64,000 nucleotides of DNA from Parcubacteria group bacterium GW2011_GWA2_42_14 (GCA_000998135.1 LCCV01000003.1:6392-70391); one strand, 5' to 3'; positions 13,601 to 41,062 are shown, counted from the stretch's first letter. A program made the numbers and translations. The notes: generated by a model not told the origin, from the sequence alone.

Positions 13601-13879
13601 TTGAGCGAGCACGGTCAAGTGGTAGCGTTTATTGTCAATATTGGGCCTTTTTTGATGAAAATTTTCATAAGCAATATACATTTCGCATCCGATAATGGGT
13701 TTAATTCCCGCTTTTTTCGCTTTTTTATAAAATTCAATGACTCCGTACATGGAGCCATGGTCGGTAATTGCCAAAGAATCCATTTTCAGTTCAACAGCGC
13801 GGTTGATTAATTGATCAATTTGCTGGAGACCGTCAAGAAGTGAGTAGTGGGTGTGGACATGGAGGTGGGTAAATTTCAT
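10691..13879 (-). CDS. dnaE: DNA polymerase III alpha subunit DnaE
   Basis: The PHP N-terminus MKFTHLHVHTHYSLLDGL is present. Length is 1062 aa. Confidence 0.95.
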   Translation of the reverse strand: MKFTHLHVHTHYSLLDGLQQIDQLINRAVELKMDSLAITDHGSMYGVIEFYKKAKKAGIKPIIGCEMYIAYENFHQKRPNIDNKRYHLTVLAQNLAGYYNLIKLVTKAHLEGFYYKPRVDKTILREYSNGLIALSGCFNGEIPHAIKNKKMDIAERLTREYQDIFGKENFYLEIQPHFNFPEQKTINEGLLVLSQKTGAKLVATNDTHYSLPTDAEAQDILVSVQTGSKMDDENRLTMKEANLSMRSTEEMISLFPDLPEAIANTQEIANKINLEIPFGTWTFPDLKIPEGETYDSELKKITYAGIKNRGLNKTKELEERVEYELKIIKDKGFSPYFLAVADLINYAHSKNIFTTVRGSVAGSIVTYLTGITNVNPIEYKLPFERFLNPERPSAPDIDMDFADNRRDEVIQYAKEKYGRDHVAQIGTFGTMMARAAVRDVARALGYPYAIGDKIAKLIPLGSQGFPMTIKEALRITPELRDLLEKERDVKTVITQAQKLEGCARHISVHAAGVVITPRPLWEYVPLQLDPKGGKIITQYDMHAVDDLGLLKFDFLGIRNLAILEDAVHLVKKFRDIEIDIEKIPLDDKKTFELLERGETVGLFQLNGVGMTKYLKELKPTTIHDINVMVALYRPGPINNIDEYIARKNGLKKFTYLHPKMKSYLDRTYGVLVYQDDLLMTAMEIAGYSWGEVDKFRKAVGKKIPEEMKKQHIIFVDGCVKHGKMKHEEAERLWELFEPFQGYGFNKAHAACYGRVAYQTSYMKANFPGEYMTAVLTADSGNIEKAAEIIAECARMEIPVLPPNINESFAKFTLIKNNNENDKIRFGLESIKNVGANIVQAIINARESGNHFQSITDFIERVRHKDLNKKSLESLIKCGALDELGERGPLLGNLENILEYARDHQKNESMGQTSLFSLIPEVKVSSIKLKSFPSAGKNEMLAWEKELLGLYVTEHPLEEYKEKLQNRVIAVNELKNQPKDKLLSIGGLVSGIKKIITKAGSPMLFVTIEDLTGKTEVLVFPRVLEKNPAIWQEEKILLVKGRISDAGRDDTIKILCEEAEEIL

Positions 13880-13941
13880 GAATCATGAATCATGCAACAT
13901 GTACCTCAAAACGGTTTATGTTTCAAGTTTCATGTTCCAAG
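13877..13941. repeat. CATG-core heptamer tandem repeats at the dnaE start/5' UTR
   Basis: catgaat catgaat catgcaa catgtac ... tttcaag tttcatg ttccaag. Confidence 0.8.
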
Positions 13942-14019
13942 ATTTACTCTTATTGTACACTTTTTCTTTTTTTAAACGCAATATGTGTATAATTTAAAAC
14001 CCTCGTTTGGAGACGAGGG

Positions 14020-14793
14020 TTATCCGCAGTTTTGTTTTATGGCATCAGCGCTTTTTGGGTCGTATTTTAATTCAGAAGTGATTTTACTGTGCATGATTGA
14101 TTCAATTTTTTCCGCGCCGGGAATAGTTTTATCATCGTCAATGTGAGTTGCGCCGCAGTTGTGGCCAAGTTCGTGCAACAGCACCTTCTTTATTACTTTG
14201 ATGTCGGAATTATATAAAATCGTGGATTCTTTGCTCTTTATGTAGTCAGACTCGTGCCTTTTTACATTAGCGTATCCGCTTTTTGATTCGCCTGTTATGC
14301 TTTTTATTTCTTTTCCGGTGACAAATACTATAAAATCAGTTGTTTGGGCAAGTTTTCCCAGCCAGTTAAGAATTTCAAAGCCAAAAACCGATTGTCCGTT
14401 AATTTCTTCGGCAGGTTGGATATTAAAAGTTACTTTTCCTATTTCAAGCCTTCTTCCGACCTGAGTAAGAAATATAGAAGAAGCCTGTTTGGCAACTTCT
14501 TTGATATTTTCTTCTATGTTTTCTTGGGGAATAGATTTTGTCAGTTCCGGGTCTATGATAAATTCGATTGTCAGCGGGGATTTTTCTTGTAAAGCGGAAA
14601 TTTTGAAAATATTTGTTTCTTTGTTTTCCAGAATATTCCGCGGTACGGCTCCGGTGGGGCGTGGGAATTTTAAATTATTCTTTGGCAGCTCGATATCCCG
14701 CGATAAGATTGAATTTATTGCGGTAGTAATTAACTGCGGGAGTAATATCGCGGATATCAGCAGAATAACCAAACCCGCCTTTTTCATTTTCAT
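14020..14793 (-). CDS. Secreted metzincin-type zinc metalloprotease
   Basis: A signal peptide is present, and HELGHNCGATH matches HExxHxxGxxH. Confidence 0.6.
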   Translation of the reverse strand: MKMKKAGLVILLISAILLPQLITTAINSILSRDIELPKNNLKFPRPTGAVPRNILENKETNIFKISALQEKSPLTIEFIIDPELTKSIPQENIEENIKEVAKQASSIFLTQVGRRLEIGKVTFNIQPAEEINGQSVFGFEILNWLGKLAQTTDFIVFVTGKEIKSITGESKSGYANVKRHESDYIKSKESTILYNSDIKVIKKVLLHELGHNCGATHIDDDKTIPGAEKIESIMHSKITSELKYDPKSADAIKQNCG

Positions 14794-15626
14794 TTCTCCG
14801 CGTTATTTTTCCAGATTTTCTGATTTCTCAAAGAAGGAAGGATTTTTTTAATGGGATTTATTGGGATGGCAAAACCGATTTGGTTTGCGTTTTGAATCAT
14901 GCTTTGGATAATGCCGATAACCTTATTGCTGAATACGTCAATCAGCGGACTTCCGGAATTTCCTGGATTGAGTGATGACTGAATTTGAATGAGGGGAATG
15001 GGATGGGAGTATATCGTTCTTTTCAAGCCGCTTATTGTTCCCGAAGACACTGTAAAATTGATGCCAAGCGGATGTCCGATTATCAGTATTTTATCGGATT
15101 CCATTATAACGTCCGAGTTGCCGAGGGTTAAGAATGGAAAATTGGATTTTTCGGTATTTATTTTTAACAGCGCCAGGTCATTGGGCTTGTCAATTCCCAC
15201 TACGTCAGCCTTGAACACATTGCCGTTGAAAAGCATTATAGAAATTTCTTTATGAGCGTCAATTACGTGATAGTTGGTTAGAATTTCCCCGTCCGGAGTA
15301 ATTATGAAGCCGGTGCCGACCAAGAAGGATTGAATTAATCCCAGTTCTTCATAAAGTATGGTTTCTTTATATAGCGGCGGTATGATTCGCGGCATGAATT
15401 TTTGGGCAGGATCGTTTTCTTGCTTGTCGTCATTTTTTTTTGCCGGATCTATTTCTGTTTTTATAAAAACAACTGCTTGCCTGTTTTTTTGCGTGATATC
15501 CCGATAATAATAGGTTTCGTTTCGGATATTATCCTCGGCACCATGGGCAAAGACAACGCGGTTGGCCTGGGGAACGGTGATAGTCGTAAAAAGCAATAAT
15601 GCTGAAATCAAGAATTTTGTGTTCAT
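14790..15626 (-). CDS. Trypsin-like serine protease (S1 family, no PDZ domain)
   Basis: The sequence shows TNYHVI (His), DLALLKI (Asp) and GNSGSPL (Ser). There is a 4-nt overlap with the downstream metzincin gene. Confidence 0.75.
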   Translation of the reverse strand: MNTKFLISALLLFTTITVPQANRVVFAHGAEDNIRNETYYYRDITQKNRQAVVFIKTEIDPAKKNDDKQENDPAQKFMPRIIPPLYKETILYEELGLIQSFLVGTGFIITPDGEILTNYHVIDAHKEISIMLFNGNVFKADVVGIDKPNDLALLKINTEKSNFPFLTLGNSDVIMESDKILIIGHPLGINFTVSSGTISGLKRTIYSHPIPLIQIQSSLNPGNSGSPLIDVFSNKVIGIIQSMIQNANQIGFAIPINPIKKILPSLRNQKIWKNNAEK

Positions 15627-15713
15627 TTTTGGCTGTTTTTCGCGCTTATCAAGGGTCTGATTTCATAGTAATATAAGATTTGAAATTAGCAATATTGAAT
15701 TGTTGGACTAATT

Positions 15714-16499
15714 ATGGCAAAAAAACCTTTTTATTTAATTGGAATAGATGAAGTTGGCCGCCCCAATGGGCGAGCCTCGCCTTATCAATATATTATTGGG
15801 ATAGACGAGGCGGGACGGGCCGCCAGATATGGCCAGCCTCGCCCAAACTTTATTATAGGAATAGATGAAGCTGGGCGGGGACCATTGGCCGGTCCTGTGG
15901 TTGTAGCCGGAGTGTTAATAGCGACAAGGGGCAAGAGGCATGTGGCAAGACAACTTTACGGTATTCGTGATTCAAAAAAACTTTCCGCCAAAAAACGCGA
16001 AGAGTGGTTTAGAAAACTTACGAGCAATTCTAAAATCGAATGGGCTGTGGCCAAAGTTTGGCCGAAAGTTATTGACAGGATTAATATTACTAACGCGACG
16101 AACCTTGGTGTAAGGAGGGTTTATAAAAAATTAAAGTTAAACAAAGTAGCTTCTCGACTCGGCTCGAAGAATAAAAATTTTATTGTTCGAGCTTGTCCCG
16201 TTAGAAATTCTATTTCTAACGGGGCTTGTCGAGAACATACCTTACTCGACGGCGGTTTAAAACTTCCATCCCATATTTCTTTTGAATCAATTATTAAGGG
16301 CGACGAAAAAATTCCTATTATTTCCGCCGCTTCAATTATTGCTAAAGTAATCCGCGACCGTCTGATGATTCGTCTTCACAAAAAATATCCAAAATACCGG
16401 TTTGACATACACAAGGGTTATGGCACAAAACTGCATAGAAAATTGCTCAAAAAATTCGGTAGAAGCGAGATACATAGAAAGTCCTTTCGATTTAGTTAA
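15714..16499 (+). CDS. rnhB: Ribonuclease HII with a triplicated N-terminal IIGIDEAGR segment
   Basis: GIDEAGRGPLAGPVVVAGV is the RNase HII catalytic N-terminus. Two degenerate upstream copies (LIGIDEVGRP..., IIGIDEAGRAARY...) precede it. Confidence 0.8.
   Translation: MAKKPFYLIGIDEVGRPNGRASPYQYIIGIDEAGRAARYGQPRPNFIIGIDEAGRGPLAGPVVVAGVLIATRGKRHVARQLYGIRDSKKLSAKKREEWFRKLTSNSKIEWAVAKVWPKVIDRINITNATNLGVRRVYKKLKLNKVASRLGSKNKNFIVRACPVRNSISNGACREHTLLDGGLKLPSHISFESIIKGDEKIPIISAASIIAKVIRDRLMIRLHKKYPKYRFDIHKGYGTKLHRKLLKKFGRSEIHRKSFRFS
15735..15900 (+). repeat. in-frame ~57-60 nt tandem triplication inside rnhB
   Basis: Three consecutive units starting att/tta-att-gg(a/g)-ata-ga(t/c)-ga(a/g)-g... Each unit contains a ggcgagcctcgcc or ggccagcctcgcc palindrome. 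Confidence 0.8.
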
Positions 16500-16589
16500 A
16501 GTTACTTAAGAAAGATGTGCGATTTGCATTTTTTAGTTCAAAATGGTAAAATTTTCTAGGCTCTTTTAGAGGGGGGGATAATACAGACT

Positions 16590-16808
16590 ATGGCTTATGA
16601 TATGGAACCAATTATTCATCCTCGTCATAATTTGGTTCGACAAATGCTGTGGGAAGAAGAAAGGAATAAGTGTCCGCATGATATGGGAAAATGCGGAGGC
16701 AACATTATCCTAACAGGAATTGCTGATGCTAAGAATTTGGTTTGTGATAAGATAGCTATTTTGGCGTGTACTAACGGTCATAAGTGGATGAGTCCGGTAA
16801 TTGATTAA
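16590..16808 (+). CDS. small Cys/His-rich hypothetical protein
   Basis: 72 aa with a CPHDMGKCGG...C...C..GH pattern. It may bind zinc. Confidence 0.3.
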   Translation: MAYDMEPIIHPRHNLVRQMLWEEERNKCPHDMGKCGGNIILTGIADAKNLVCDKIAILACTNGHKWMSPVID

Positions 16809-16891
16809 TTTATATTTGGGCAGAAATGCCCTTTTTATTCATTTGCCAAAAAGATAATTATTTGTTAGCATCTTTCTATATGGTAGTTCGC

Positions 16892-17164
16892 ATGAGACAT
16901 ACAAAAAGCAAGAGAAACCGCGTGAGGTCGCATCACGCTATTTTGGCTGCCAAATTTGTCCGGTGCGGACACTGCGGCGCGGAAAATTTGCCCCATACGG
17001 TATGTACCAATTGCGGTTATTATGCCGGCAGGGAAGTCGTTGATGTTTTGGCAAAACTTGATAAAAAAGATAGAAAGAAACGGGAAAAAGAACTACACGC
17101 TCATGAAAAAGAGCAGGCGGAGAAAGGAAGGGAATTGAACGCGGAAGAGTTATCGCATCATTAG
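16892..17164 (+). CDS. rpmF: 50S ribosomal protein L32 (bL32) with a Lys/Glu-rich C-terminal tail
   Basis: MRHTKSKRNRVRSHHAILAAKFVRCGHCGAENLPHTVCTNCGYYAGREVV matches the bL32 core. The ORF track's start at 16826 is an upstream over-extension. Confidence 0.8.
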   Translation: MRHTKSKRNRVRSHHAILAAKFVRCGHCGAENLPHTVCTNCGYYAGREVVDVLAKLDKKDRKKREKELHAHEKEQAEKGRELNAEELSHH

Positions 17165-17234
17165 AGACAAGTGACATGTGACAAGTGACAAGGTAGCATA
17201 AACCATGTCTCATGTCCCATGTTTCATGTCACAA
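17164..17234. repeat. heptamer tandem repeats (gacaagt / gacatgt ... catgtct catgtcc catgttt catgtca) between rpmF and nusB
   Basis: Clear 7-nt periodicity. It overlaps the annotated nusB start. Confidence 0.8.
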
Positions 17235-17795
17235 ATAGTGGCATCACGGCATTTAGCAAGGTCAATCGCTATGCAGTCCTTCTATGAATGGGATTTTAAT
17301 GGCAAGGACGATTCAAAATTAGAATCAATTGTTGAAAAAAATATTAAGGAATTCGGTCCTGGTCTTGAAGAAATTGATTTTATCAAACGGCTGGTCAGCG
17401 AAACCATTAAAAATTTACCGCAAATTGACAAAATTATTGAAAAAGCCGCGCCGGAATGGCCCATTAATCAGATTGCCATAGTTGACCGTAATATTCTAAG
17501 AATCGGCCTTTATGAGCTGTTGTTCGGAAATCATGAAGAAGTGCCGCCTAAAGTTGCTATAAACGAATCTATTGAAATCGCTAAAAATTTCGGAGGAGAA
17601 ACATCCGGAAAATTCGTAAACGGTGTTTTAGGCACGGTTTATCGTGAAATAGGAGAACCGGGAAAAGATTATCCGACCAGAGCGGAATTGGCAAAGAAAA
17701 GGGAGGAAGAGGAGGAAGTGAAGAAAGAAGAAGGAAAAACGGTTGATGGGTCTGAAGAAAAGAAGAAGAAAAAGAAAAATAAATTAGCAGATTAA
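17205..17795 (+). CDS. nusB: Transcription antitermination factor NusB (the annotated N-terminus probably over-extends into a heptamer repeat; likely start near 17271)
   Basis: The core ...SRHLARSIAMQSFYEWDF...DRNILRIGLYELLF is NusB. The first ~20 codons (MSHVPCFMSQ) are encoded by the catgtNN heptamer repeat. Confidence 0.8.
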   Translation: MSHVPCFMSQIVASRHLARSIAMQSFYEWDFNGKDDSKLESIVEKNIKEFGPGLEEIDFIKRLVSETIKNLPQIDKIIEKAAPEWPINQIAIVDRNILRIGLYELLFGNHEEVPPKVAINESIEIAKNFGGETSGKFVNGVLGTVYREIGEPGKDYPTRAELAKKREEEEEVKKEEGKTVDGSEEKKKKKKNKLAD

Positions 17796-17890
17796 GTGAA
17801 TTAAGCGAGTTAAGCAGGTTAAGCCCGTATGAACTATCGGCTTAATTTATTTAATTCACTTAACTCGCTTAATAAGCACAGTTAAGTGAG
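17790..17890. repeat. 9-nt-periodic (ttaagNNNN) palindrome forming a long hairpin between nusB and rnc
   Basis: ttaagtgaa ttaagcgag ttaagcagg ttaagcccg, an inner hairpin ttaagcc-(13 nt)-ggcttaa, then the complementary ttaactcgcttaa arm. Confidence 0.7.
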
Positions 17891-18581
17891 TAATCTATCA
17901 CTATTTGAAGAAAAATTTTCTATAAAATTTAATAGCACTGATTTACTTAAACAGGCACTGACGCATCGTTCATATTTGAACGAAAATCCTTCTTCGGTTT
18001 TGGGGCATAATGAGCGTTTGGAATTTTTGGGGGACGCGGTTTTGGAATTGGTGGTAACGGAGAATCTTTATCAAAAATTCCCGGAAAAGCCGGAAGGAGA
18101 ACTTACCAGTTTCCGGGCCGCTTTGGTTAATTCAAAAATGCTTGCCGATGTTGCGGTGGAAATAGATATCAATGATTTTTTGCTTCTTTCCAGGGGCGAA
18201 GCCAAAGACATGGGCAGAGCCAGACAATATATTTTAGCTAACGCTTTTGAGGCCCTGATAGGAGCGATTTATTTGGACCAGGGGTATGATACGGTCAAGA
18301 ATTTTATAAACAATGTTTTGATAACAAGATGGCTTGGAGATGTTCTTCAAAATAAGCTTTATAAAGACCCCAAGTCCCTTTTTCAAGAAGAAGCGCAGGA
18401 AAGAGTGGGGATTACTCCTACTTATAATGTTCTTCGCGAATGGGGGCCGGACCATGACAAGCATTTCGTCGTTGGCGTTTTTTTGGGCAGAGAATTGGTT
18501 GCCGAAGGCGAGGGTCCGTCAAAACAAGCGGGACAGGAAGAGGCGGCGAGATTGGGGCTCAAGGCCAAAGGATGGGGATAA
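17886..18581 (+). CDS. rnc: Ribonuclease III
   Basis: The signature HNERLEFLGDAVLELVV and a C-terminal dsRBD are present. The start codon is GTG. Confidence 0.9.
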   Translation: MSNLSLFEEKFSIKFNSTDLLKQALTHRSYLNENPSSVLGHNERLEFLGDAVLELVVTENLYQKFPEKPEGELTSFRAALVNSKMLADVAVEIDINDFLLLSRGEAKDMGRARQYILANAFEALIGAIYLDQGYDTVKNFINNVLITRWLGDVLQNKLYKDPKSLFQEEAQERVGITPTYNVLREWGPDHDKHFVVGVFLGRELVAEGEGPSKQAGQEEAARLGLKAKGWG

Positions 18582-18582
18582 T

Positions 18583-18659
18583 TTAACCAACAACTGACAA
18601 CTAATAACCGACAACGCGCTGTTGTGAGTTGTTAGTTGTAAGTTATAAGTAACCAACGG
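18583..18659. repeat. 7-nt-periodic palindromic element (ccaacaa ctgacaa ... ttgtgag ttgttag ttgtaag) downstream of rnc
   Basis: The two arms are inverted-complementary. A close paralog lies at 40191-40260, downstream of atpB. Confidence 0.8.
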
Positions 18660-18730
18660 AATGTGGGTTGCTTTTTTATTTATGGCGTGCTACTTCTTAA
18701 ATAAAGTTCATTGAAAATACGGAGGTTTTT

Positions 18731-20653
18731 GTGCCAGATAAGAACGGTGGCACTCGTCCTAAAACAAACATATTAATCTGGTTTATAATCGGTTTTTTGG
18801 CTTTTATGTTTTTTCAGATTATTAGCGGGGTAAAGGATACGTCTCCCCCCTTGCTTGATTATTCTTCGTTTAAGCGGGAGACGGAAAAAGGCAATGTCGC
18901 GATTGTGATTTTTTCCAGACACCGCGAGTCGCTTATTGTTGATTTAAAAACAGCGATTGAGATTGATAGCAGTATAAATCCTAATAAAAAAAAGAGCGAG
19001 AAACTGCCGTTTGTATCCCAGCGTTTTATTGTCCATATTTCCAAAGAGAATATTTCTCAGCTTGTTAAAGAATTGGAAGAAAAAAAGGTCAGGGTAATTT
19101 TTGATGAAGCGCCTAATCCGGATGATTCCTTTTGGAGCGGAATTATCAGCTCTTTAATTTGGATGGGTTTAATGCTTGCTATCTTTATTTGGGTTATGCG
19201 CAGAATGCGGGGTGGCGCCGGCGGAAGCAACAATCCTTTTTCATTCGGTAAGAATAAAGCCAAATTGGTTACGGAAGCTGATGCCAAAAAAGTTACTTTT
19301 AAGGATATTGCCGGTTGCGATGAGGCCAAAGAAGAACTTCGGGAAATTGTTGAATTTTTGAAAGACCCGCTTCGGTTTAATAAGCTCGGCGGGCATATTC
19401 CCAAGGGTGTTCTTCTTGTCGGTTCCCCCGGAACCGGGAAAACACTTCTTGCCAAAGCGGTTGCCGGAGAAGCTGGCGTTCCATTCTATACCATTTCCGG
19501 TTCTGACTTTGTGGAAATGTTTGTCGGCGTGGGCGCGTCCCGTGTCAGAGATCTTTTTGAGCAGGCAAAAAAACATGCTCCCTGTATTATTTTCATGGAT
19601 GAGATTGACGCGGTTGGCCGCCATCGCGGAGCAGGCATTGGCGGTGGGCATGATGAGCGGGAGCAGACATTAAACCAGCTTTTGGTTGAAATGGATGGAT
19701 TTGGTACGGATTCAAGCGTTATAATGGTGGCCGCGACCAACAGGCCTGATATTCTTGATCCCGCGCTTCTTCGTCCCGGAAGATTTGACAGGCAGGTTGT
19801 AGTTCCGCGCCCCGACCTTAGAGGACGTCTGGAAATTCTTAAGGTTCATATCAAGGGCAAGCCCATGGATGAATCGGTTGACTTAACAATGATTGCGCGC
19901 GGTACTCCGGGATTTTCGGGAGCCGACCTTGCCAATCTTTTGAATGAAGCCGCGCTTTTGGCATCCCGTCAAAATAAGGAAAAGATTGAACCGGTTGATC
20001 TTGATAAAGCGCTTGATAAAATCTTAATGGGTACGGAGCGGAAAAGCGCGATTATTCCCGAACATGAACGGCGAATTACGGCTTGGCATGAAGCCGGGCA
20101 CGCTGTTGTTGTTCACGAACTTTATTTGGAGGATACTTATAATTCAGACCCGCTTCATAAAGTAACCATTATTCCGAGAGGCGAGGCGGGCGGATTAACA
20201 CAGCAGCTTCCCCACGAGGACAGGCATTATTATTCAATGAAGTATTTAAAGAACCGGCTTGCTGTTCTTATGGGCGGCCGGGTAGCGGAAGAAATTAAAT
20301 TCAAGGATAAGTCAACGGGCGCCGGGAACGATATCGGGGTGGCGACGGAGCTTTCGAGAAAGATGGTTTGCGAATGGGGCATGAGCGATAAATTAGGACC
20401 GATAACTTTCGGCAAAAAACAGGAATTGGTCTTTTTAGGCAGAGAAGTGGGCCGGGAACAGAATTACAGCCATGAAGTCGCCAAAGCCATTGATGAAGAA
20501 ATAAAGTTTTTTATTACTGAAGCGTATCAGAGAGCCGGTAAAGTTATTTCTGAAAAATGGACCGAACTTGAACGTTTGGCCGCAAAGCTTTTGGAGGCGG
20601 AAACATTAACAGGAGAAGAAGTTAAAGCAATTTTAGAAAGCAACCCCGTATAA
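18731..20653 (+). CDS. ftsH: ATP-dependent zinc metalloprotease FtsH
   Basis: The sequence shows [27 protein letters not shown], an AAA domain, and the HEAGHAVV zinc site. Confidence 0.95.
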
Positions 20654-20672
20654 TTATGGGGTTTTTCTTTTT
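20643..20672 (+). terminator. rho-independent terminator after ftsH
   Basis: accccgtataattatggggt followed by ttttcttttt. Confidence 0.7.
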
Positions 20673-20730
20673 GATTACCGCTTGCCTGTGAGGGCGAAAA
20701 ATGATAGTTTTATTTAAGATACGTTTATAA

Positions 20731-20808
20731 AACATGAAACATGTAACATGGAACATAGCCTTTTTAGTCAATGATTCATGATTCATGATTCATGATTCAT
20801 GATTCATG
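20731..20808. repeat. heptamer tandem repeats (aacatga aacatgt aacatgg aacatag ... tgattca x5) upstream of smc
   Basis: The array ends exactly at the smc ATG. Confidence 0.85.
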
Positions 20809-23001
20809 AAGTTAAAGCGTTTAGAACTTTCTGGTTTCAAGTCGTTCGCCCGAACGACTGTTTTGGAATTTCCGGTTTCCACAACCGCCATTGTCGGTCC
20901 GAACGGCTCGGGAAAATCAAATGTGTCGGAAGGAATACGTTGGGTATTGGGAGAGCAGTCAATGAAGTCGCTTCGCGGAAAAAGGGGGGAAGATTTGATT
21001 TGGAACGGTTCTCCGACTCTTCCGCGTATGGGCAAGGGTCAGGTTACCCTTATTTTTGACAATAAGGATGGGAAAATTTCATTGGATTTTGATGAGGTTT
21101 CTATTGGACGAAAGATTTTTCGCGATGGAATTAACGAATATTATTTGAATGATTCGCAAGTGCGCCTTAAGGATGTTGTGGAACTGATCGCTCGCATGGG
21201 TCTTGGCGAAATAAAACATAATATGATCGGACAAGGCGAGGTTGACAGGATTTTGCTTTCCACGCCGCGAGAACGCCGGGAATTGATTGAAGAAGCAATC
21301 GGCCTTAAGGTTTACCAGATAAAAAAAGCGGAAGCAGAAAGAAAACTCGGCGCTTCCAAAGAAAATTTAAAGGATGTTGAATCGTTAATACGCGAATTGA
21401 CCCCGCATTTGAAATTTTTAAAAGAGCAGGCTAAAAAAGCTGAGTCGCGCCAGCTCGTTTCGCGGGAATTGAACGCGCTTCAGAAATATTATTTTCAGAA
21501 AGGTTTTGAGGAAATGAGCTCGCTTTTCAAGAAATTTGAAGCGGAGCGCTCTCCTTACGAGAAAAAAATAAAGGCGATTGAAGAAGAAATTCAGGAGATG
21601 TTCCAGAAAATACGCTCCCTTGAAGGAAAATCAAAAGATAACGAAGAAGTAAGGGAATTGCGTTCCAGAATTTCCCAATTGGAAAAGGAAGAGCGTGATT
21701 TATCGCGCGACCTCGGCCGGATCGAGGGCAGGATTGAAGCGGAAAAGGCCAAGCCCAAAACCGTAACTAGGATAATTGACCTTGGTTATGTGAAAGAAGC
21801 GGTTTTGCGTTTTATCGTCTTTTTGGAGGAATCGGAAAAAGATAATGAGCTGGAATCGCTTCGAAGAAGGGTGGCCAATCTTAAAGATAATATCGGCAGA
21901 TTTCTTAAGGATTTGGAAAAGGGTTCGGTTGAGGAGGAGCGGAAAATTGAAAGCGAGATTGAAGAATTGTCCGCACGTGAGCAAAAATTGCAGGGTGAAA
22001 TGGAAAAAATCAGCCAGGGTTTGCTCTCTGCCAAAGACGCGCTTTACGGCAAAGAAAGGGATTACGCGTCGCTCCAGCAGGAGTTAAGGCAGTCGGATAA
22101 GCTGATTCGCGACAAAGAAGAAGAAAAAACCATGCTTCGCGAGTCCTTAAACCGCACCGCCTTTGAGGAAGAAAAAGTCATGCTTAAACAGGAGGAGCTG
22201 GAAAAAGAACTCGTATTTCTAGGATTAACCCATGAGGATATTGGCGGAGAGCTCGACCCGGCCATAAGCTATGAAAATTTGCAGGAAGCGCGCCGTCGCA
22301 TTGAAAGATTGAGAGCGCGCCTTGAAGAAATCGGGGGAATTGACGAATCCGTTGTTAAGGAATATCAGGAAACCGAAGCGCGTTATACTTTTTTGCAGAA
22401 AGAAAATGAAGACATTAAAAAGGCCATTGATTCAACCGAAGAATTGCTTGAAACCCTTGAAAAAACATTGAAAGAAAATTTTCATGAAGGTTTTTCAAAA
22501 ATCAGGGATGAATTTCACAATTATTTCCGGGTCATCTTCGGAGGGGGCGGAGCAAAATTGAAATTGGTTGAATACGGAAGGAAGAAGTCCGCCGAAGAAT
22601 TGCAGGAGTTGGAAGAGCTGGGAGAAGAAATAGAAGAGCCGTATGAAGGAATTGATATTGAAGTTGATTTGCCCAAAAAACGAATTAAATCCCTGGCTAT
22701 GCTTTCGGGTGGCGAGCGCTCCCTTTGTTCCATCGCTTTTCTTTTTGCCGTAACCGCGGTAAATCCGCCGCCATTTTTATTTTTGGATGAAACGGACGCG
22801 GCTCTGGACGAAGCCAATTCCAAAAGATACGCCGAAATTTTAAGGGAATTGTCCAAAAAAACCCAGCTTATTATCGTTACTCATAACCGCGAAACCATGC
22901 GCGTGGCCGGGGTTTTGTACGGCATTACCATGGGAGATGACGCGGTATCTAAGCTCCTTTCACTCAAACTTGAAGAAGCCGAGGTTTATACAAATAGATA
23001 A
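20806..23001 (+). CDS. smc: SMC-family chromosome segregation ATPase (short form, 731 aa)
   Basis: The N-terminus FKSF...IVGPNGSGKSNV is a Walker A. A long coiled coil follows. The C-terminus has LSGGERSLCSIAFLFA and LDETDAALD. Confidence 0.7.
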   Translation: MKLKRLELSGFKSFARTTVLEFPVSTTAIVGPNGSGKSNVSEGIRWVLGEQSMKSLRGKRGEDLIWNGSPTLPRMGKGQVTLIFDNKDGKISLDFDEVSIGRKIFRDGINEYYLNDSQVRLKDVVELIARMGLGEIKHNMIGQGEVDRILLSTPRERRELIEEAIGLKVYQIKKAEAERKLGASKENLKDVESLIRELTPHLKFLKEQAKKAESRQLVSRELNALQKYYFQKGFEEMSSLFKKFEAERSPYEKKIKAIEEEIQEMFQKIRSLEGKSKDNEEVRELRSRISQLEKEERDLSRDLGRIEGRIEAEKAKPKTVTRIIDLGYVKEAVLRFIVFLEESEKDNELESLRRRVANLKDNIGRFLKDLEKGSVEEERKIESEIEELSAREQKLQGEMEKISQGLLSAKDALYGKERDYASLQQELRQSDKLIRDKEEEKTMLRESLNRTAFEEEKVMLKQEELEKELVFLGLTHEDIGGELDPAISYENLQEARRRIERLRARLEEIGGIDESVVKEYQETEARYTFLQKENEDIKKAIDSTEELLETLEKTLKENFHEGFSKIRDEFHNYFRVIFGGGGAKLKLVEYGRKKSAEELQELEELGEEIEEPYEGIDIEVDLPKKRIKSLAMLSGGERSLCSIAFLFAVTAVNPPPFLFLDETDAALDEANSKRYAEILRELSKKTQLIIVTHNRETMRVAGVLYGITMGDDAVSKLLSLKLEEAEVYTNR

Positions 23002-23060
23002 CATTTGACTAAATTATTAAAGTATGATATAATTAAAATAATAACTACCCGGCCTGAAAA

Positions 23061-23636: not shown

Positions 23637-23668
23637 GCCGTTTAACTCCGTACCCAAACGGGTCGGAA

Positions 23669-23740: not shown

Positions 23741-23866
23741 TACGAAACTATCAGTATCAGCGTATTGTCGGCGTACTTTATCGGCGTTTTATCAGCTTCT
23801 ATGGAAAATAGAAGCAGATTTGACGCTGATTAGTACGCTGATACCTCGCTGAAACTGTATTTCGTA
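23741..23866. repeat. large palindromic element built on tacgctga / tcagcgta cores (MITE-like)
   Basis: Left arm tacgaaactatcagtatcagcgta. The right arm is its imperfect reverse complement, tacgctgatacctcgctgaaactgtatttcgta. An inner palindrome reads cttctat...atagaag. Confidence 0.7.
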
Positions 23867-23870
23867 TTCT

Positions 23871-26141: not shown

Positions 26142-26450
26142 ATGCTAATGCTTAAATTTCAACGTGTTGGGCGGACTAATGACCCGGCTTTCAGGATTGT
26201 GGTTACGGAAAAGAAGTCAAAGCCGAAATCGGGAGAACATGAGATTCTAGGGTCATTTCATCCCAAAACCAAAGCAACGAACCTGAAAAAGGAAAGGATT
26301 TTGTATTGGCTTTCGGTTGGGGCAAAAGCTACCCCGAGAGTGCATAATCTTTTGGTTTCAAATAAAGTGGTTGAAGGGAAGAAAATACCGATAAAAATAA
26401 AATCCCAAATCCCAAATCCCAAATCCCAAACAAATCCCAAATCAGAATGA
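26142..26450 (+). CDS. rpsP: 30S ribosomal protein S16 (bS16) with a repeat-encoded C-terminal tail
   Basis: KFQRVGRTNDPAFRIVV...ILYWLSVGAKATPRV is the bS16 core. The tail IKSQIPNPKSQTNPKSE is read through the aaatccc repeat. Confidence 0.85.
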   Translation: MLMLKFQRVGRTNDPAFRIVVTEKKSKPKSGEHEILGSFHPKTKATNLKKERILYWLSVGAKATPRVHNLLVSNKVVEGKKIPIKIKSQIPNPKSQTNPKSE

Positions 26451-26535
26451 CCAAAATTCAAAACACGTGTTTTGGATTTTGAATTTGGAAATTTGATATT
26501 ATTTGGAATTTGGTGCTTGGTGCTTGGAATTTAGT
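26398..26535. repeat. aaatccc x5 array plus caaaacacgtgttttg palindrome plus ttggaat/ggtgcttgg repeats, between rpsP and the wzy-like gene
   Basis: The tandem aaatccc runs are followed by a perfect 16-nt palindrome. Confidence 0.8.
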
Positions 26536-31844: not shown

Positions 31845-31892
31845 ATTTATTGTTAGCGAACCCTATTACAATCCGGTCTAAAGACGGAGTTT

Positions 31893-34343: not shown

Positions 34344-34560
34344 AGGAATTTTTTCAACGCCTTTATTTTGGTTATTACGTTTTTTGATTCCACTGTCCCT
34401 TTGCTTCTCGCAAAAGCCCTGGGTTTGCCCTCGGCAAACCCGTCGCTTGCGACCCCGATTGAAAAAATTCCTTTAGGTTTTCTTCATAAAAAAGTCATAT
34501 TGTGTTTTTTTGGACGGTGTGATACATTTTTAATGCTCCACAAACCAAAGGAGTGGGCGA

Positions 34561-35025: not shown

Positions 35026-35035
35026 TAAAATATTG

Positions 35036-35058
35036 CACCGCGCTTGCGGTGTTTTTAT
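35036..35058 (+). terminator. rho-independent terminator
   Basis: caccgcgcttgcggtg followed by ttttta. Confidence 0.75.
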
Positions 35059-35082
35059 ATCCGCGTTTATCCGCTTCTACAG

Positions 35083-36459: not shown

Positions 36460-36510
36460 GCGTTTTATATTATCATAAAATAGCGGGATTTTGAAGGGAT
36501 TCCTTCTCGC

Positions 36511-37470: not shown

Positions 37471-37511
37471 TATTTTTTTACCACACTCGCTCGCTAGTTA
37501 GGATTTTTCTA

Positions 37512-37565
37512 AAATTTATCTAAATTTACATTGAACGATCGGTCAATAGTGATTTAGATAAAAAA
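37512..37565. promoter_or_regulatory. palindromic operator-like element (tttatctaaat...TTGAACGatcgGTCAA...atttagataaa), left copy
   Basis: Near-perfect inverted repeats. A second copy lies at 38153-38210, on the other side of the regulator gene. Confidence 0.5.
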
Positions 37566-37566
37566 T

Positions 37567-38103
37567 ATGGAATTAAAACATCTTATACTTCAAAAAATTG
37601 CTGAATTGGGCGAGGTGATGCTTAACGGTTTTTTCCCGTCCAAATACCCGGAAGCAAGATTATGGCGTAATCTGCTCGGAGCCGAGTCCTCCTATAAATT
37701 TTCCAAACCGACTTTTTCCGCGATACTGACTCAATTACGGGAGGAGGGATTTGTTAAGCGGAAGAACACAAGAAAGAAATCTGAGTGGCATATTACGTCC
37801 AAGGGTTTAAAGCATCTTCAGTTTAAAAAGGCGTTCAATGCCAATGCGATAATGGTAAAAAAAGACGGTATTGCGCGCATTGTGTGTTTTGATATCCCGG
37901 AGCGGGAAAGGAAGAAACGGCGCTGGATTCGGGAAGAGTTATTAAGTTTGGGGTACCAGCCGCTTCAAAAAAGCGTCTGGCTGGGATTTTCTCCAATATC
38001 GGAAGATTTTTTTAAAGATCTGGAGTTGCTTTCATTGCGAAGTTATATCCATATTTTTAGCGTGGATAAAAAAGGCACTATTGAAAAGACGTGGCAGGGG
38101 TAG
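37567..38103 (+). CDS. wHTH plus Cas2/VapD-like-fold regulator (PaaX-family-like)
   Basis: N-terminal wHTH (SAILTQLREEGFVKRK). The C-terminal RIVCFDIPERERKKRRWIREELLSLGYQPLQKSVWL resembles the PaaX_C / Cas2-like core. Confidence 0.4.
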   Translation: MELKHLILQKIAELGEVMLNGFFPSKYPEARLWRNLLGAESSYKFSKPTFSAILTQLREEGFVKRKNTRKKSEWHITSKGLKHLQFKKAFNANAIMVKKDGIARIVCFDIPERERKKRRWIREELLSLGYQPLQKSVWLGFSPISEDFFKDLELLSLRSYIHIFSVDKKGTIEKTWQG

Positions 38104-38152
38104 TAGACGTGAAAGTAAAAAATTCCCTTTTTATGCTTCTTTCCTTGTTTAG

Positions 38153-38210
38153 AAAATTTATCTAAATTGCTATTGAACGACCGTTCAAGGTAAATTTAGA
38201 TAAATTTTTT
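38153..38210. promoter_or_regulatory. palindromic operator-like element, right copy (TTGAACGacCGTTCAA core flanked by tttatctaaat / atttagataaa)
   Basis: Perfect 7+7 inverted repeat with a 2-nt spacer, embedded in a larger AT-rich palindrome. Confidence 0.5.
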
Positions 38211-38395
38211 ACCAGTTTTTCCTGGATAATAATCGATACCGGAATCATTGTGTTAGTTTCTTGAAGTCGCCCCGTCGGGTTTGCATTTTAAGCTGGTTTT
38301 TGTTATAAAGGTTATGCCGTTGGCTGGGGTCAGCTTGACGGGTGAGTTCTTTGACGGTGTGTCCCTCCCTGTAGAATTGAGGGGCAAAACAAATC

Positions 38396-39394
38396 TTGTC
38401 CGCCAGGGCGGACATGACAGCCTGCCCGGCTGTAGAAAGAGGCAAAATGTCCGGCACGAACGACCTTATGCGCATTTCGGCTATTGTCCAGGATGTTTTT
38501 GAACCGCTTCATACTGGCATAAGTTTGGTTTTCACCATCGCGCCAAATGGCAAAGTGTGGGGGAAACGGCTTGATGTAAAAAGCACAAGCAGAGATGTTG
38601 AGCTTGAAATTTTTTCCGGCACCGATGACGGGTATGTGCTTTGGAAATTAGACGGGGGCAACCGGGTCCGGCGTTACCCCAATGTTTTGACTATCGAACA
38701 AAGGCGTAAGGTTGATATGATAATGTTTGAGGAGCGAACGATAACTCATCTTTTGAGCACGATCGTTGTGCTGGCCCCTATAAATCTTCCCGACAATTAT
38801 TTGCCGTCAATGCGGCCATATTTACTTTTTCGGGGTCTGCATGAGCAACCTGCCTTACGGCGAAATATTTTTGCGCATGTTGTTGATTGTTCAGATGATT
38901 CTTCTCCGTTGGCGGGGAGTAAGGGCGGCTTATGGTCAATTCAATATTGTGATAAAAGATTTTCTTTCGTCTTTTTCGATCCCAGAGAACAAGATGAATA
39001 CTTGCAAGGAAGAAAGTTAGAGAGGAATGAATATTCTATTGCTAATGTATGTTTGCATCAGCGCGCGGAGAATAATAAGACAATTTTTCCACGGCATGAA
39101 TTTTATGCAGTACAAGCGCAAAATGGCGAATTCGACCTTTTTCGTTCCGGCGCGTTTCAGAGACAGAAGCTCTTTTTACGGCCCGTTGTGCGCGTAACAT
39201 ATGGCGGGCATGATTTCTTTGATTATTTCAAGGTGGATGACGTTTTGCTGCTTCTTGAAGAATTCAGGACAACAGAAACGGATTCGGAGTTTACGTGGAC
39301 TATCGCGGTTGCTCAAAATAAGTTTATACGGAACATATTGCGTTTGCACTCAAATAGCAAAACTCTTTTTCAGGCGTTAAAAATTCAAAAATAA
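38396..39394 (+). CDS. hypothetical protein (332 aa; GC-rich 5' region)
   Basis: Long ORF with no recognisable motif. It lies immediately downstream of the right operator-like palindrome. Confidence 0.4.
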   Translation: MSARADMTACPAVERGKMSGTNDLMRISAIVQDVFEPLHTGISLVFTIAPNGKVWGKRLDVKSTSRDVELEIFSGTDDGYVLWKLDGGNRVRRYPNVLTIEQRRKVDMIMFEERTITHLLSTIVVLAPINLPDNYLPSMRPYLLFRGLHEQPALRRNIFAHVVDCSDDSSPLAGSKGGLWSIQYCDKRFSFVFFDPREQDEYLQGRKLERNEYSIANVCLHQRAENNKTIFPRHEFYAVQAQNGEFDLFRSGAFQRQKLFLRPVVRVTYGGHDFFDYFKVDDVLLLLEEFRTTETDSEFTWTIAVAQNKFIRNILRLHSNSKTLFQALKIQK

Positions 39395-39448
39395 GTGGCT
39401 TTTATGCCGCTTTATTTTTTTTAAAAAATCTATATACTAAGTAATGGT

Positions 39449-40189
39449 ATGTTAGAAATATCAATTGGGGCGGAAAAAATATTTGAAGTGGCAGGGTTTC
39501 CTATTACTAATACGCTTTTGACGACCTGGATGGTGGTCGGTTTTTTTGTTGTCGTAAGCCAGTTATTGGTTAGGCGGCTTCAGTTGGTTCCGGCCGGCAT
39601 CCAAAGTGTTTTTGAAGCGGTCATTGAAGGGGTGCTCGGCATGATGGACGGTGTTTTGGGAGAGCGGAAAAGGTCAGAAAAATATTTTCCCTTGATCGCA
39701 ACAATCTTTCTTTTTGTCATATCTTCCAATTGGTTCGGTATTTTTCCCGGGTTCGGGTCAATCGGTTTTAATGAAATTTATGAAGGAAATGAAGTGTTTA
39801 TCCCATTTTTTCGGTCCGGGGCGGCAGATCTTAATTTTACTCTTGCTCTTGCCATCATTTCCGTTATTTCGGTGCAGTTTTTGGGAATCGCGGCGATAGG
39901 GTTTTTCAAGCATGCAAAGAAGTATTTCACCTTTAAAAACCCCATTGAAACCTTTGTTGGGCTACTTGAATTTATCTCCGAAATTGCTAAAATGATTTCG
40001 TTCTCGTTTCGGCTGTTTGGGAACGTTTTTGCCGGGGAGGTTCTTCTTATTATAATGGGGTTTTTGGTGCCGTATTTCGTTCCTGTTCCATTCTTGTTTC
40101 TTGAGTTATTTGTCGGTTTTATCCAGGCGCTGGTGTTTGCCATGCTGACGCTTGTGTTTCTCGGCATGGCGGTATCGGAGCATCATTAA
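39449..40189 (+). CDS. atpB: F0F1 ATP synthase subunit a
   Basis: ...RLFGNVFAGEVLL...LELFVGFIQALVFAMLTLVFLG is the C-terminal signature of subunit a. Confidence 0.9.
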   Translation: MLEISIGAEKIFEVAGFPITNTLLTTWMVVGFFVVVSQLLVRRLQLVPAGIQSVFEAVIEGVLGMMDGVLGERKRSEKYFPLIATIFLFVISSNWFGIFPGFGSIGFNEIYEGNEVFIPFFRSGAADLNFTLALAIISVISVQFLGIAAIGFFKHAKKYFTFKNPIETFVGLLEFISEIAKMISFSFRLFGNVFAGEVLLIIMGFLVPYFVPVPFLFLELFVGFIQALVFAMLTLVFLGMAVSEHH

Positions 40190-40190
40190 G

Positions 40191-40260
40191 TTAACCAACA
40201 ACCGATAACCAACAACTCACAACAGGACTGTTGTAAGTTGTAAGTTATAAGTTGTAAGTC
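40191..40260. repeat. 7-nt-periodic palindromic element (acaaccg ataacca acaactc ... gtaagtt gtaagtt ataagtt), paralog of 18583-18659
   Basis: Shares ttaaccaacaac...ctgttgt.agttgt.agttgtaagtt ataagt with the rnc-downstream copy. Confidence 0.8.
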
Positions 40261-40266
40261 AATAAT

Positions 40267-40494
40267 ATGGAGTCAGAATCAATGAAACTTTTGGCAACGG
40301 CCATTGTTATGGCGGTTGGGACCGTCGGTCCGGCGCTTGCCATCGGCATGCTTGCCTCAAAAGGCCTTCAGGCAATAGGTCGGAATCCGGAAGCATCGGG
40401 AAAAATTCAGACGGCGATGATTTTAGCAATTGCTTTTGCCGAGGCCATTGCGATATACGCGCTGGTAGTGGCCCTTATTATAAAGTTTGTGTAG
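40267..40494 (+). CDS. atpE: F0F1 ATP synthase subunit c
   Basis: A two-helix proteolipid: LAIGMLASKGLQAIGRNPEASGKIQTAMILAIAFAEAIAIYALVVALII. Confidence 0.9.
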   Translation: MESESMKLLATAIVMAVGTVGPALAIGMLASKGLQAIGRNPEASGKIQTAMILAIAFAEAIAIYALVVALIIKFV

Positions 40495-41062
40495 AGACAA
40501 GAGACATGAGACAAGAGACATGGAAGTTGAAACATGTCGCATGTCGCATGTCGCATGTCGCATGTCAGAATTAATTCACCAATTTGGCATTGAATGGAAA
40601 ATTCTGGTCGCCCAGATAGTTAATTTTTTTATTTTGCTTGTTATTCTGAAGAAATTCGCGTATGGCCCGATTTTAAATATTTTAAAGGAGCGAAGGAAAA
40701 AAATTGAAGAAGGGCTTTTGGCCGCGGAAGAATCGCAAAAAAAGCTTGGTGAGGCCGAGAAAGAAAAAGAGGGGATTTTGACAGATGCCAGAAAAGAATC
40801 GATCGGTATCATCCAAAAATCGGAAGTAACGGCCAGAGAAAAAGAAAGCCAAATTTTAACCGAGGCAGGCAAAAAAGCCGAAGGAATTTTCGTTGAAGAA
40901 AAAGCAAAAATTCACGAGGAAAAGCTAAAAATGAAAGAAGACATATACAAAGAATTTTCGGTATTTTTGAAAGAAGCATTAGCAAAAATTGTTGAAAAGT
41001 CGCCGCAAGATTTGGACGATAATTTAATACAAGAAACTTTGCGGGAATTGAAGGAAATGTAA
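40487..41062 (+). CDS. atpF: F0F1 ATP synthase subunit b (the annotated N-terminus over-extends through a heptamer repeat; likely start near 40565, MSELIHQF...)
   Basis: A TM helix (ILVAQIVNFFILLVIL) is followed by a long charged coiled coil. The first ~26 codons are encoded by gagacaa / catgtcg repeats. Confidence 0.7.
   Translation: MCRDKRHETRDMEVETCRMSHVACRMSELIHQFGIEWKILVAQIVNFFILLVILKKFAYGPILNILKERRKKIEEGLLAAEESQKKLGEAEKEKEGILTDARKESIGIIQKSEVTAREKESQILTEAGKKAEGIFVEEKAKIHEEKLKMKEDIYKEFSVFLKEALAKIVEKSPQDLDDNLIQETLRELKEM
40494..40567. repeat. heptamer tandem repeats (gagacaa gagacat x2; catgtcg x4) between atpE and atpF
   Basis: 7-nt periodicity. It generates an artefactual N-terminal extension on the atpF ORF. 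Confidence 0.85.

Follow-up and report, generated by a model that had tools for sequence, protein, structure and literature searches.

The short tandemly repeated repetitive (STRR) sequences of heterocystous cyanobacteria consist of a 7-nt unit, with the consensus CCCCAGT, TTGGTCA, or CAACAGT, that is repeated from a few to about 10 times at many loci. Here, we have analyzed a 64,000-nt stretch of the genome of Parcubacteria group bacterium GW2011_GWA2_42_14 (GCA_000998135.1, LCCV01000003.1:6392-70391), referred to below as the window, which carries heptanucleotide tandem arrays of a similar kind in and around genes such as dnaE, nusB, smc, atpF, and thrS. The host is a groundwater bacterium of the Parcubacteria group within the candidate phyla radiation (CPR); the closest named relative that was found is a Candidatus Sungbacteria metagenome-assembled genome (MAG), whose DnaE is 65% identical, and the best of the other relatives reach 69-71%. 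Like the STRR sequences, the arrays occur as several unit families in one genome and are enriched in intergenic DNA. Unlike them, they are found in a very small CPR/Parcubacteria genome, are paired with arrays of the complementary unit, fill the spacers between stop and start codons, and have in-frame copies in essential genes. We consider it somewhat probable that they are lineage-specific, hypermutable heptamer repeats of the STRR kind that are built as complementary hairpin pairs and are mainly selfish or neutral.

Several other described systems bear on these arrays. The TAACTGA repeats of the Beggiatoaceae, which also occur in some Cyanobacteria and Bacteroidetes, form mostly intergenic sets of 2-6 copies that lie in the forward orientation and end a few nucleotides before the start of genes that mostly lack a ribosome-binding site (RBS), housekeeping genes included; indels in 7-nt steps distinguish strains, and a few copies overlap or lie in open reading frames (ORFs) (MacGregor 2015, PMC4679880). 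The arrays described here resemble them as heptamer direct repeats near RBS-less starts, with 7-nt indels and some copies in ORFs. However, the TAACTGA sets have one dominant unit, which does not contain ATG, and are inverted in only 1 of 170 sets (PMC4679880), whereas the present arrays have many different units and are as a rule paired in inverted orientation, and those of the CATG families include the start codon in the repeat. A forward array ending a few nucleotides from an RBS-less start was found for four CATG arrays and not at the other nine loci. There is no TAACTGA array in the window, in which the units of one family (CAACTGA, TAACCGA) only resemble it.

In Haemophilus influenzae, the (ATCTTTC)n simple sequence repeat (SSR) in the 5' leaders of hmw1A and hmw2A supplies one of the two arms of a long hairpin, and its number of units varies; control of expression has been shown experimentally, and RNase III has been proposed as the effector (PMC12721329). 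The likeness is that of a heptamer SSR acting as a hairpin arm with a varying number of units, the hairpins in the present case being predicted in silico. The difference is that the partner arm of hmw is nonrepetitive and G-rich and the gene encodes a surface adhesin, whereas here both arms are repeats and the genes are housekeeping genes. Many bacterial genomes contain an excess of heptamer SSRs (Mrazek et al. 2007, as cited in PMC4692102), and their origin by slippage has tentatively been tied to the DNA footprint of the polymerase (PMC4692102). Intergenic heptamers with the units GGGAATC in Xanthomonas and GGGGAYT in Nostoc have been reported, with occasional inverted pairs of stem-loop potential in Xanthomonas (PMC4692102), as have four-repeat GGACCGG elements within and between genes of Geobacter metallireducens (PMC2700814). 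These are likewise genome-specific heptamer families at dozens of loci, and one unit found here, AAATCCC, is the complement of GGGATTT, which is close to the Nostoc and Xanthomonas units. Unlike the present arrays, they are G-rich and mostly of one unit type, pairing is exceptional, and overlap with start codons is undescribed.

Palindromes in intercistronic spacers and in-frame palindromic insertions in genes also have precedents. The repetitive extragenic palindromes (REPs) and bacterial interspersed mosaic elements of enterobacteria are short, dispersed, imperfect palindromes in intercistronic spacers, and REPs are associated with REP-associated tyrosine transposases (RAYTs). Rickettsia palindromic elements (RPEs), which are 100-150 bp long, lie in frame in protein-coding genes, where they are tolerated in surface loops. 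To our knowledge, the arms of neither REPs nor RPEs are tandem repeats of a short unit.

Against this background, the arrays belong to a known but poorly understood class of bacterial heptamer repeats. They share its defining features and fail the sequence definitions of STRR1-3 and TAACTGA; their units differ from the STRR consensus, and the relatives retrieved were Parcubacteria-group MAGs. Four properties distinguish them, namely, the host lineage, the systematic pairing of both arms, the presence of the start codon within the unit, and the in-frame copies in essential genes. The original prediction, which was made from the sequence of the window, held that heptamer repeats are not a described feature of CPR genomes; this agrees with the searched literature, in which no paper joining heptamer repeats with CPR terms was found.

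The period-7 signal in the window is well above expectation. The 19 exact period-7 tandem runs that it contains (self-matches no shorter than 8 nt) compare with 1.86 +/- 1.39 in 50 second-order Markov shuffles, and neighboring periods are at the level of chance (2 versus 1.4 for period 5 and 1 versus 1.8 for period 8). Tandem Repeats Finder returned approximately 25 period-7 rows, among them the five CATG-core arrays that had been predicted to lie on the starts of dnaE, nusB, smc, and atpF and once inside thrS. The coordinates and units of all five were recovered, and they form a true heptanucleotide tandem-repeat family. Moreover, the pattern CATGNNNCATGNNNCATGNNNCATG (CATG-N3, 3.6 repeats) has 7 matches, which fall at exactly these five sites, and 0 in 100 shuffles. 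However, a CATG core and a position at a start codon do not define the family: the full set comprises 25 arrays at 13 loci, the majority without CATG, and arrays are also found after stop codons, in ORFs, and in long spacers. As in STRR sequences, three or more 7-nt copies stand head to tail at many loci, in excess over adjacent periods, with a preference for intergenic DNA; noncoding sequence makes up 13.8% of the window yet holds 17 of the 25 arrays (P ~ 1e-9, where paired arrays are not independent). The arrays cluster in the short spacers that this compact genome has between its genes, where they extend from the upstream stop to the downstream start. Their density is uneven, since approximately 18 kb of additional genome sequence beyond the window added only one further element, a copy in rpoC. 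There were no Rfam matches at the gathering score across the whole window, and a tRNA scan found none.

An origin of the arrays in assembly or sequencing error has practically nothing to recommend it. The same arrays are present in more than 10 independent assemblies of one strain cluster, at approximately 99.9% identity to the window, from differing samples, assemblers, and archives (NCBI GCA_001820775.1 and GCA_001822305.1, several ENA ERZ samples, JGI 3300025308, and Logan), which rules out an assembly artifact; the strain contigs were recognized through exact window proteins (DnaE, AtpA, HtrA, RpoB, and others). Furthermore, the reading frames of the essential genes are intact through the arrays. 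Gene identities were taken from Pfam and from gene calls on the strain contigs.

The common feature of the loci is the pairing of complementary arrays into hairpins (Table 1). At nearly every locus, an array is followed, after a loop of 4-25 nt, by an array of the complementary unit, and the predicted single-strand fold, which DNA or RNA could adopt, is one long helix with a 1x1 or 3x3 mismatch at each seventh position. Folding z-scores lie between -2.8 and -5.0 at 7 of the 9 loci with a 7-nt period; the value in the cysteine desulfurase gene (IscS/NifS type, below iscS) is weaker, and that of the AT-rich periodic hairpin between htrA and rpoB is not significant.

Table 1. Tandem arrays and array hairpins in the window and in the adjoining rpoC gene, with arms given in the order left; right (MFE, minimum free energy; z, folding z-score)
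Feature	Position	Strand	Units and remarks	Fold
F2 element in frame in thrS	9183..9260	-	sense TAGTGACAAGG...GACAAGG...(CATGTCA CATGTCG CATGTAG CATGT)	
Solo F2 left-arm-type array in frame in thrS	9451..9482	-	GACAAGG GACAAGC GACATGG GACAAGG	
dnaE 5' leader hairpin, F1	13872..13948	-	sense strand: GGAACAT/GAAACTT/GAAACAT, ~13943-13920; CATGTTG CATGATT CATGATT CATG, 13901-13877	MFE -20.5, z -3.5
rpmF(L32)-nusB spacer hairpin, F2	17165..17232	+	GACAAGT GACATGT GACAAGT GACAAG, beginning 1 nt after L32 TAG stop; CATGTCT CATGTCC CATGTTT CATGTCA	MFE -25.6, z -4.5
nusB-rnc spacer hairpin, 9-nt period	17793..17890	+	period-9 rows 17791-17873; TTAAGNNNN units and complement, from nusB TAA stop to rnc GTG start	MFE -35.7
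rnc-ftsH spacer hairpin, F3	18583..18650	+	ACAACTG ACAACTA ATAACCG ACAAC, 1 nt past rnc stop codon 18579-18581; GTTGTGA GTTGTTA GTTGTAA GTTATAA	MFE -23.6, z -5.0
smc 5' leader, F1	20730..20809	+	AAACATG x3.9, 20730-20756; ATGATTC x5.6, 20771-20809	z -2.8
rpsP(S16) C-terminal tail and downstream spacer	26400..26530	+	AAATCCC x6.7; G/T-rich TTTTGAA and TTGGTGC arrays	z -2.8
atpB-atpE spacer hairpin, F3	40191..40259	+	ACAAC-type units, 1 nt past atpB TAA stop; GTTGTAA x4.3	MFE -22.5, z -5.0
atpE-atpF spacer hairpin, F2	40493..40566	+	GACAAGA GACATGA GACAAGA GACATGG, beginning at atpE TAG stop; CATGTCG x4.9	MFE -28.7, z -4.6
Short array inside atpG (minor)	46012..46028	+	AAATCCC x2.4, unit as in S16 array	
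Array after atpD	48145..48167	+	AATTTTC x3.3, beginning within atpD TAA stop; without clear partner arm	
Array in frame in cysteine desulfurase gene	51026..51057	+	CAAGATA x4.6	
Array pair in frame in cysteine desulfurase gene	51308..51380	+	GAATTAA-type; CATAATT-type	z -2.5
Spacer after htrA, upstream of rpoB	59928..60057	+	AATTTYC arrays; AATTGAA/GAAAATT arrays	z -1.0
F3-type hairpin in frame in rpoC	L233 15231-15320, ~1.7 kb past window end		ACAAC; GTTGT	

The units fall into a few dispersed families. In family F1 (AAACATG/CATGATT), AAACATG pairs with CATGATT at smc and dnaE; in F2 (GACAWGN/CATGTCN), GACAAGT or GACATGT pairs with CATGTCN at L32-nusB and atpE-atpF; and in F3 (ACAACNN/GTTGTAA), ACAACTG pairs with GTTGTAA at rnc-ftsH and atpB-atpE. 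In addition, there are AAATCCC units, which pair with G/T-rich units downstream of S16, AATTTYC units, which pair with GAAAATT at htrA-rpoB, and others, such as GAATTAA, which pairs with CATAATT inside iscS. The sequence GACAWGNGACAWG occurs 15 times, at four loci only (nusB, atpF, and the two thrS sites), and GTTGTNAGTTGT occurs 5 times at two loci; the expected number is 0 in both cases. The two intergenic F2 copies share their beginning, TAG-AGACAAG at the upstream stop codon, and their AAG and ATG units follow one and the same alternation; in thrS, the copy opens with TAGTGACAAG, the TAG of which is out of frame. Similarly, both F3 copies open with the identical 12-mer TTAACCAACAAC just 3' of a TAA stop codon. 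The seventh base is specific to each copy (for example, T in the left arm at nusB and A at atpF), which is a signature of local homogenization by slippage. Because the units are so diverse, recognition by one sequence-specific binding factor is disfavored. The spacer between nusB and rnc, although its unit is 9 nt long, has an architecture like that of the paired heptamer loci.

At the gene-proximal end, arrays of the CATG families take up the spacer as far as the start codon, with certainty at dnaE and smc, probably at atpF, and ambiguously at nusB; arrays abutting or containing start codons, as originally predicted, are a fact of the sequence. The start codon of dnaE is the last ATG of the array (13879-13877), and the N terminus that follows, MKFTHLHVH, is conserved in relatives. 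The smc gene likewise starts at the last array ATG, at 20806 (MKLKRLELSGFKSF), with the conserved N terminus M(K/Y)LK.LELSG. For atpF, the last array ATG, at 40562 (MSELIHQFGIEW...), is the likely start and would yield a normal b-subunit N terminus. The nusB gene could start either at the array ATG at 17226 or at the GTG at 17238, with which the start of the relatives' proteins (MASRHLARS) aligns; the former is in frame and 12 nt upstream of the latter. The arrays do create the spurious N-terminal ORF extensions that had been pointed out, and public gene calls give NusB 196 or 174 residues and AtpF 180. Shine-Dalgarno (SD)-like motifs lie within 4-18 nt of the start in 15 of the 69 genes of the window; since 78% of genes are without one, the missing SD motif at the array genes is not special. 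Separately, several genes (e.g., at 58060 and 46439) have a TATAAT box that ends a few nucleotides before the ATG, as in leaderless mRNAs. We place the leader arrays in 5' untranslated regions (UTRs) by inference only, on the basis of terminator-like hairpins upstream, such as the site at 20642-20663 upstream of the smc arrays. A promoter scan upstream of dnaE and smc gave nothing convincing, and a hand-picked TTGCGT/TACAAT pair fails the criteria of the scan. None of the array hairpins was listed by a scan of positions 13800-21000 for intrinsic terminators, defined by a short, G+C-rich stem followed by a T run.

Other arrays are part of coding sequences. The original prediction correctly placed one CATG array in frame inside thrS; it overlooked a second in-frame array in the same gene. 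Alignments to four relatives and to Staphylococcus aureus ThrRS show that the thrS arrays are insertions. The larger element encodes a 24-residue insertion, FSDKGKDTIDKEFKNPVTCHMSHVAC, immediately before the DLCRGGHV motif of the editing domain; it is missing in the four relatives, and the region has 27 residues as opposed to 3 in S. aureus ThrRS (1nyq). The second array forms a 9-residue insertion after GFYYDFLL that is present neither in the four relatives nor in the S. aureus enzyme. In the cysteine desulfurase, the CAAGATA array adds approximately 11 residues, visible when PDB 9wep_A is aligned as a gap facing query residues 124-134, and the GAATTAA/CATAATT pair adds approximately 24 residues relative to PDB 9wep. 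The rpoC element is an insertion of approximately 25 residues compared with solved beta' chains, and its right arm is partly native coding sequence. In-frame palindromic insertions that are missing from orthologues, as in RPEs, are therefore found in ThrRS, IscS, and RpoC, with no sequence relationship to RPEs. Within genes, arrays persist only if the insertion as a whole preserves the reading frame and brings in no stop codon. At the end of rpsP, the AAATCCC array is translated as the final residues of the ORF, homology stopping at residue 79 of 102, and with the opposing G/T-rich arrays it forms a long, imperfect hairpin that folds better on the antisense strand (-51.5 versus -34.7). The complement of the AAATCCC arrays (26400-26443 and 46012-46028), (GGGATTT)n, is of the G3-N4 type, the form taken by G-quadruplex repeats.

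The arrays vary between strains. When 32 strain loci at approximately 99.9% identity were aligned to the window, 3 of the 9 indel events fell in arrays, which cover 1.15% of the window (P = 1.2e-4). The comparison of copy number between strains that had been proposed thus uncovered polymorphism: smc has one ATGATTC unit fewer (-7 nt at 20771) in assemblies L001-L003, and the left arm at nusB lacks two units (-14 nt at 17166) in assembly L003. In assembly L099, 47 nt are missing from the right arm at htrA-rpoB. Arms of a hairpin vary independently of one another, whereas the thrS, iscS, and atpF arrays are invariant, that of atpF being identical in each assembly that covers it. Arrays hence gain and lose whole units, as replication slippage predicts and as in STRR sequences. 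Phase variation had been suggested as a role; its classical form, frameshift switching, is excluded for the start-proximal arrays because the unit changes lie upstream of the start codon.

Two further observations concern these strains. At smc (20771-20809), (ATGATTC)n reads ATG ATT CAT GAT TCA TGA, a chain of five-codon upstream ORFs (uORFs), each ending in a stop codon that forms an ATGA with the ATG located two units further on. A one-unit indel might, speculatively, flip the end of the uORF chain between the start at 20806 and the out-of-frame ATG at 20799, and the polymorphism in L001-L003 is a one-unit change, as would flip the parity of the chain. Elsewhere, at 23866, the window lacks 114 nt that are present in six further assemblies from this strain cluster. 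On the missing piece lie an SD-like GGGGGAG motif and the start codon, ATG, for a small protein whose N terminus is hydrophobic; the start of this small gene has therefore been lost in this strain.

Among relatives, heptamer periodicity recurs with other units. The dnaE regions of 80 related species, 1.35 Mb in total, contain 61 period-7 clusters, compared to 5 in shuffles, 12 for period 6, and 19 for period 8 (11 in shuffles). This excess is patchy and concentrated in a few genomes (L048, L015, L023, L009, and L020), whose units are unrelated and in many cases likewise paired; not even three tandem CATG units were found in any of the 80 species in the dnaE region. The closest relatives with usable flanks (L006, L007, and L009) have the same DnaE and Smc N termini and no array at the dnaE site. 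Upstream of smc, L006 has no array and L009 has an unrelated long hairpin. Compared with these relatives, the arrays were gained recently. In metagenomes, a scan for the CATG pattern returned at least 120 loci with a G+C content of 0.26-0.71, and among the matches listed, the last ATG is in frames 0, 1, and 2 relative to the adjacent long ORF in 12, 3, and 14 cases, respectively, with no enrichment. Three low-GC contigs carry AAACATG/CATGTTT paired arrays: in L123 (700-830), a hairpin with a GC-rich loop ends at the start codon of a cation antiporter gene or in phase with it, and the contig holds further heptamer arrays; in L215 (1413-1540), the hairpin stands in the same relation to the start of a trmD-like gene; and L164 (1-110) is the third example.

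We postulate that the arrays are mainly selfish or neutral DNA, like REPs or RPEs, rather than dedicated regulators. They probably arise and are resized by slippage, and the inverted partners probably arise through local strand switching or through the spread of whole elements. The CATG families might end on start codons either because the ATG unit was seeded from the start region or because only phase-matching copies were tolerated. A hairpin would keep stop and start codons near each other in the transcript, so that an insertion between cistrons could be tolerated. The elements would persist mainly because a hairpin does little harm at such sites, or where it falls in a loop of the protein. 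Side effects on translation are plausible, since the start may be buried in a helix, additional AUGs lie upstream, and the copy number varies.

Several observations sit uneasily with this interpretation. All five F1 and F2 copies have the same orientation with respect to transcription, on both chromosome strands, with the ATG arm proximal to the gene; right arms end on or near the start at four loci, for which a phase match alone has a chance probability of ~(1/7)^4; and left arms begin at a distance of 0-9 nt from the upstream stop codon, which at the seven loci concerned belongs to L32, atpE, nusB, rnc, atpB, atpD, or htrA. The gene rnc, which encodes RNase III, is bordered on both sides by periodic hairpins. 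In approximately 8 of 20 relatives, and not in the remainder, the L32-nusB spacer contains a long hairpin of unrelated sequence, often heptamer periodic, and this recurrence could point to a selected RNA structure. Lastly, no mobilizing enzyme was found among the called genes of approximately 90 kb, nor any target-site duplication or donor copy that would account for the dispersal of the families, and slippage in situ does not by itself account for identical units at unlinked loci.

The main competing explanation, which we regard as unlikely but as deserving the most weight after our own, is that the spacer and leader hairpins are selected RNA elements that, through binding or cleavage by RNase III or through melting by the ribosome terminating upstream, would set mRNA stability or cistron coupling, with array length tuning expression as in the hmw 5' UTR. 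It draws on the precedent of hmw (PMC12721329), on the orientation of the F1 and F2 copies, and on the hairpins that recur in the L32-nusB spacer of relatives, although approximately 12 of 20 relatives have none there. At L32-nusB, atpE-atpF, and nusB-rnc, the stop codon lies at the 5' base of the helix and the start codon in its 3' base. RNase III requires a helix of roughly 21-24 bp; approximately 21-24 base pairs per helix are predicted at the loci checked, and the genome encodes rnc, itself flanked by such hairpins. Partition-function calculations that took in both natural alleles predict that the start-codon bases at array genes are mostly paired, with P(unpaired) of 0-0.3, but some control genes have equally low accessibility. 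Across 11 loci, folding energies and G-U content do not consistently favor the sense strand, and the antisense strand folds better at 4 of them, by 5-17 kcal/mol; because the energies do not consistently favor the mRNA strand, selection at the RNA level is disfavored. In addition, the htrA-rpoB hairpin is no better than shuffles, and hairpins also occur in coding regions, where cleavage would destroy the mRNA. A bolder proposal, to which we would give rather little credence, is that the arrays represent an undescribed, self-propagating class of tandem-repeat hairpins of CPR bacteria that also acts as a translational gate on housekeeping genes, dependent on unit number. In such a scheme, elements would move from one locus to another, with in-frame insertion into essential genes, and the gate, located in leaders and intercistronic spacers, would operate by sequestration of the start codon or, at (ATGATTC)n, through the ATGA-coupled uORF chain, whose parity would flip with each one-unit slippage.

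Readings that invoke a transposase, an initiation signal, or phase variation are less likely than the one we favor, with which they are compatible, as they are not mutually exclusive. Movement as nonautonomous elements, similar to miniature inverted-repeat transposable elements, REPs, or RPEs, by a transposase or nuclease encoded elsewhere, the repeat-rich arms being incidental, would explain the discrete families with common end sequences at unlinked loci, the in-frame copies in three essential genes, as in RPEs, and the absence of elements from the orthologous sites of relatives. We nevertheless judge it improbable: there is no transposase or RAYT-type (IS200/IS605-like Y1) gene among the Pfam hits of the called genes over approximately 90 kb, there are no duplicated flanks at the F1, F2, and F3 copies, whose ends adjoin stop or start codons, and no terminal inverted repeats besides the arms themselves. 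The seventh base homogenized within each copy is typical of slippage rather than of copy-and-paste, and the partly native right arm in rpoC favors local growth. The idea that the ATG-bearing heptamers provide an SD-independent landing pad for the ribosome or for a protein such as S1 or Csp follows a proposal made for the Beggiatoaceae TAACTGA repeats (PMC4679880), and by that analogy it fits the four CATG arrays that end on or next to the starts of genes without an SD motif, as well as the hairpins in L123, L215, and L164. It is less probable still, given that 78% of the genes in the window manage without either SD motifs or arrays, that most arrays have no ATG and lie away from starts, that initiation should suffer rather than gain from extra out-of-frame AUGs and a buried start codon, that the listed metagenomic CATG arrays show no frame preference, and that L006, L007, and L009 start the same genes without arrays. 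The least likely of these three is that the arrays are contingency loci whose unit number switches or grades downstream expression, perhaps, for (ATGATTC)n, via the parity of the uORF chain. Whole-unit polymorphism among co-occurring strains falls exactly at smc (+/-1) and nusB (+/-2), and the uORF geometry can be read straight from the sequence; however, dnaE, smc, nusB, and atpF are housekeeping genes and not surface or host interaction genes, changes upstream of the start produce no frameshift, most arrays are identical across all assemblies, and arrays within essential genes could only be harmful as switches.

Some features of the surrounding sequence are recorded here for completeness. 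At 294-2588, continuing upstream (L236 1-10000), there is a full gas vesicle gene cluster in a Parcubacteria-type genome, with GvpA-type genes, GvpL/F (one fused to a DnaJ domain), GvpG, GvpO, GvpK, an ArsA-type ATPase, and an AAA_5 ATPase; among the matches listed in the CPR literature, gas vesicles are not mentioned. The F-type ATP synthase operon (39449-48802) is interrupted by small, possibly selfish genes: an NYN gene (41314-41802), a NUDIX gene (41937-42227), a PDDEXK_3 gene (42831-43247) between atpH and atpA, a GIY-YIG gene (45049-45336) between atpA and atpG, and an unknown ORF of 106 residues before atpD. A GGA/GGC repeat resembling glycine codons lies at 10227-10310 on the + strand, within overlapping ORFs of both strands; approximately 13 of its positions, 3 or 6 nt apart, are changed to G in assembly L005 relative to the window.

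Heptamer repeats have been recorded for decades in cyanobacteria, Xanthomonas, Beggiatoaceae, Geobacter, and Haemophilus, and in only one of these cases did we find a demonstrated function. Here, they occur in the ultrasmall, streamlined genome of a CPR bacterium, where noncoding DNA is scarce and expected to be under pressure, and their form is unusually regular, with complementary pairs that span stop-to-start spacers or lie in frame in ThrRS, IscS, and RpoC. One practical consequence is that gene callers are misled by the spurious N-terminal extensions that the arrays create. More broadly, the arrays offer a compact system for asking whether such repeats are selfish DNA or tunable RNA structure, with a natural allelic series already at hand in public groundwater metagenomes.

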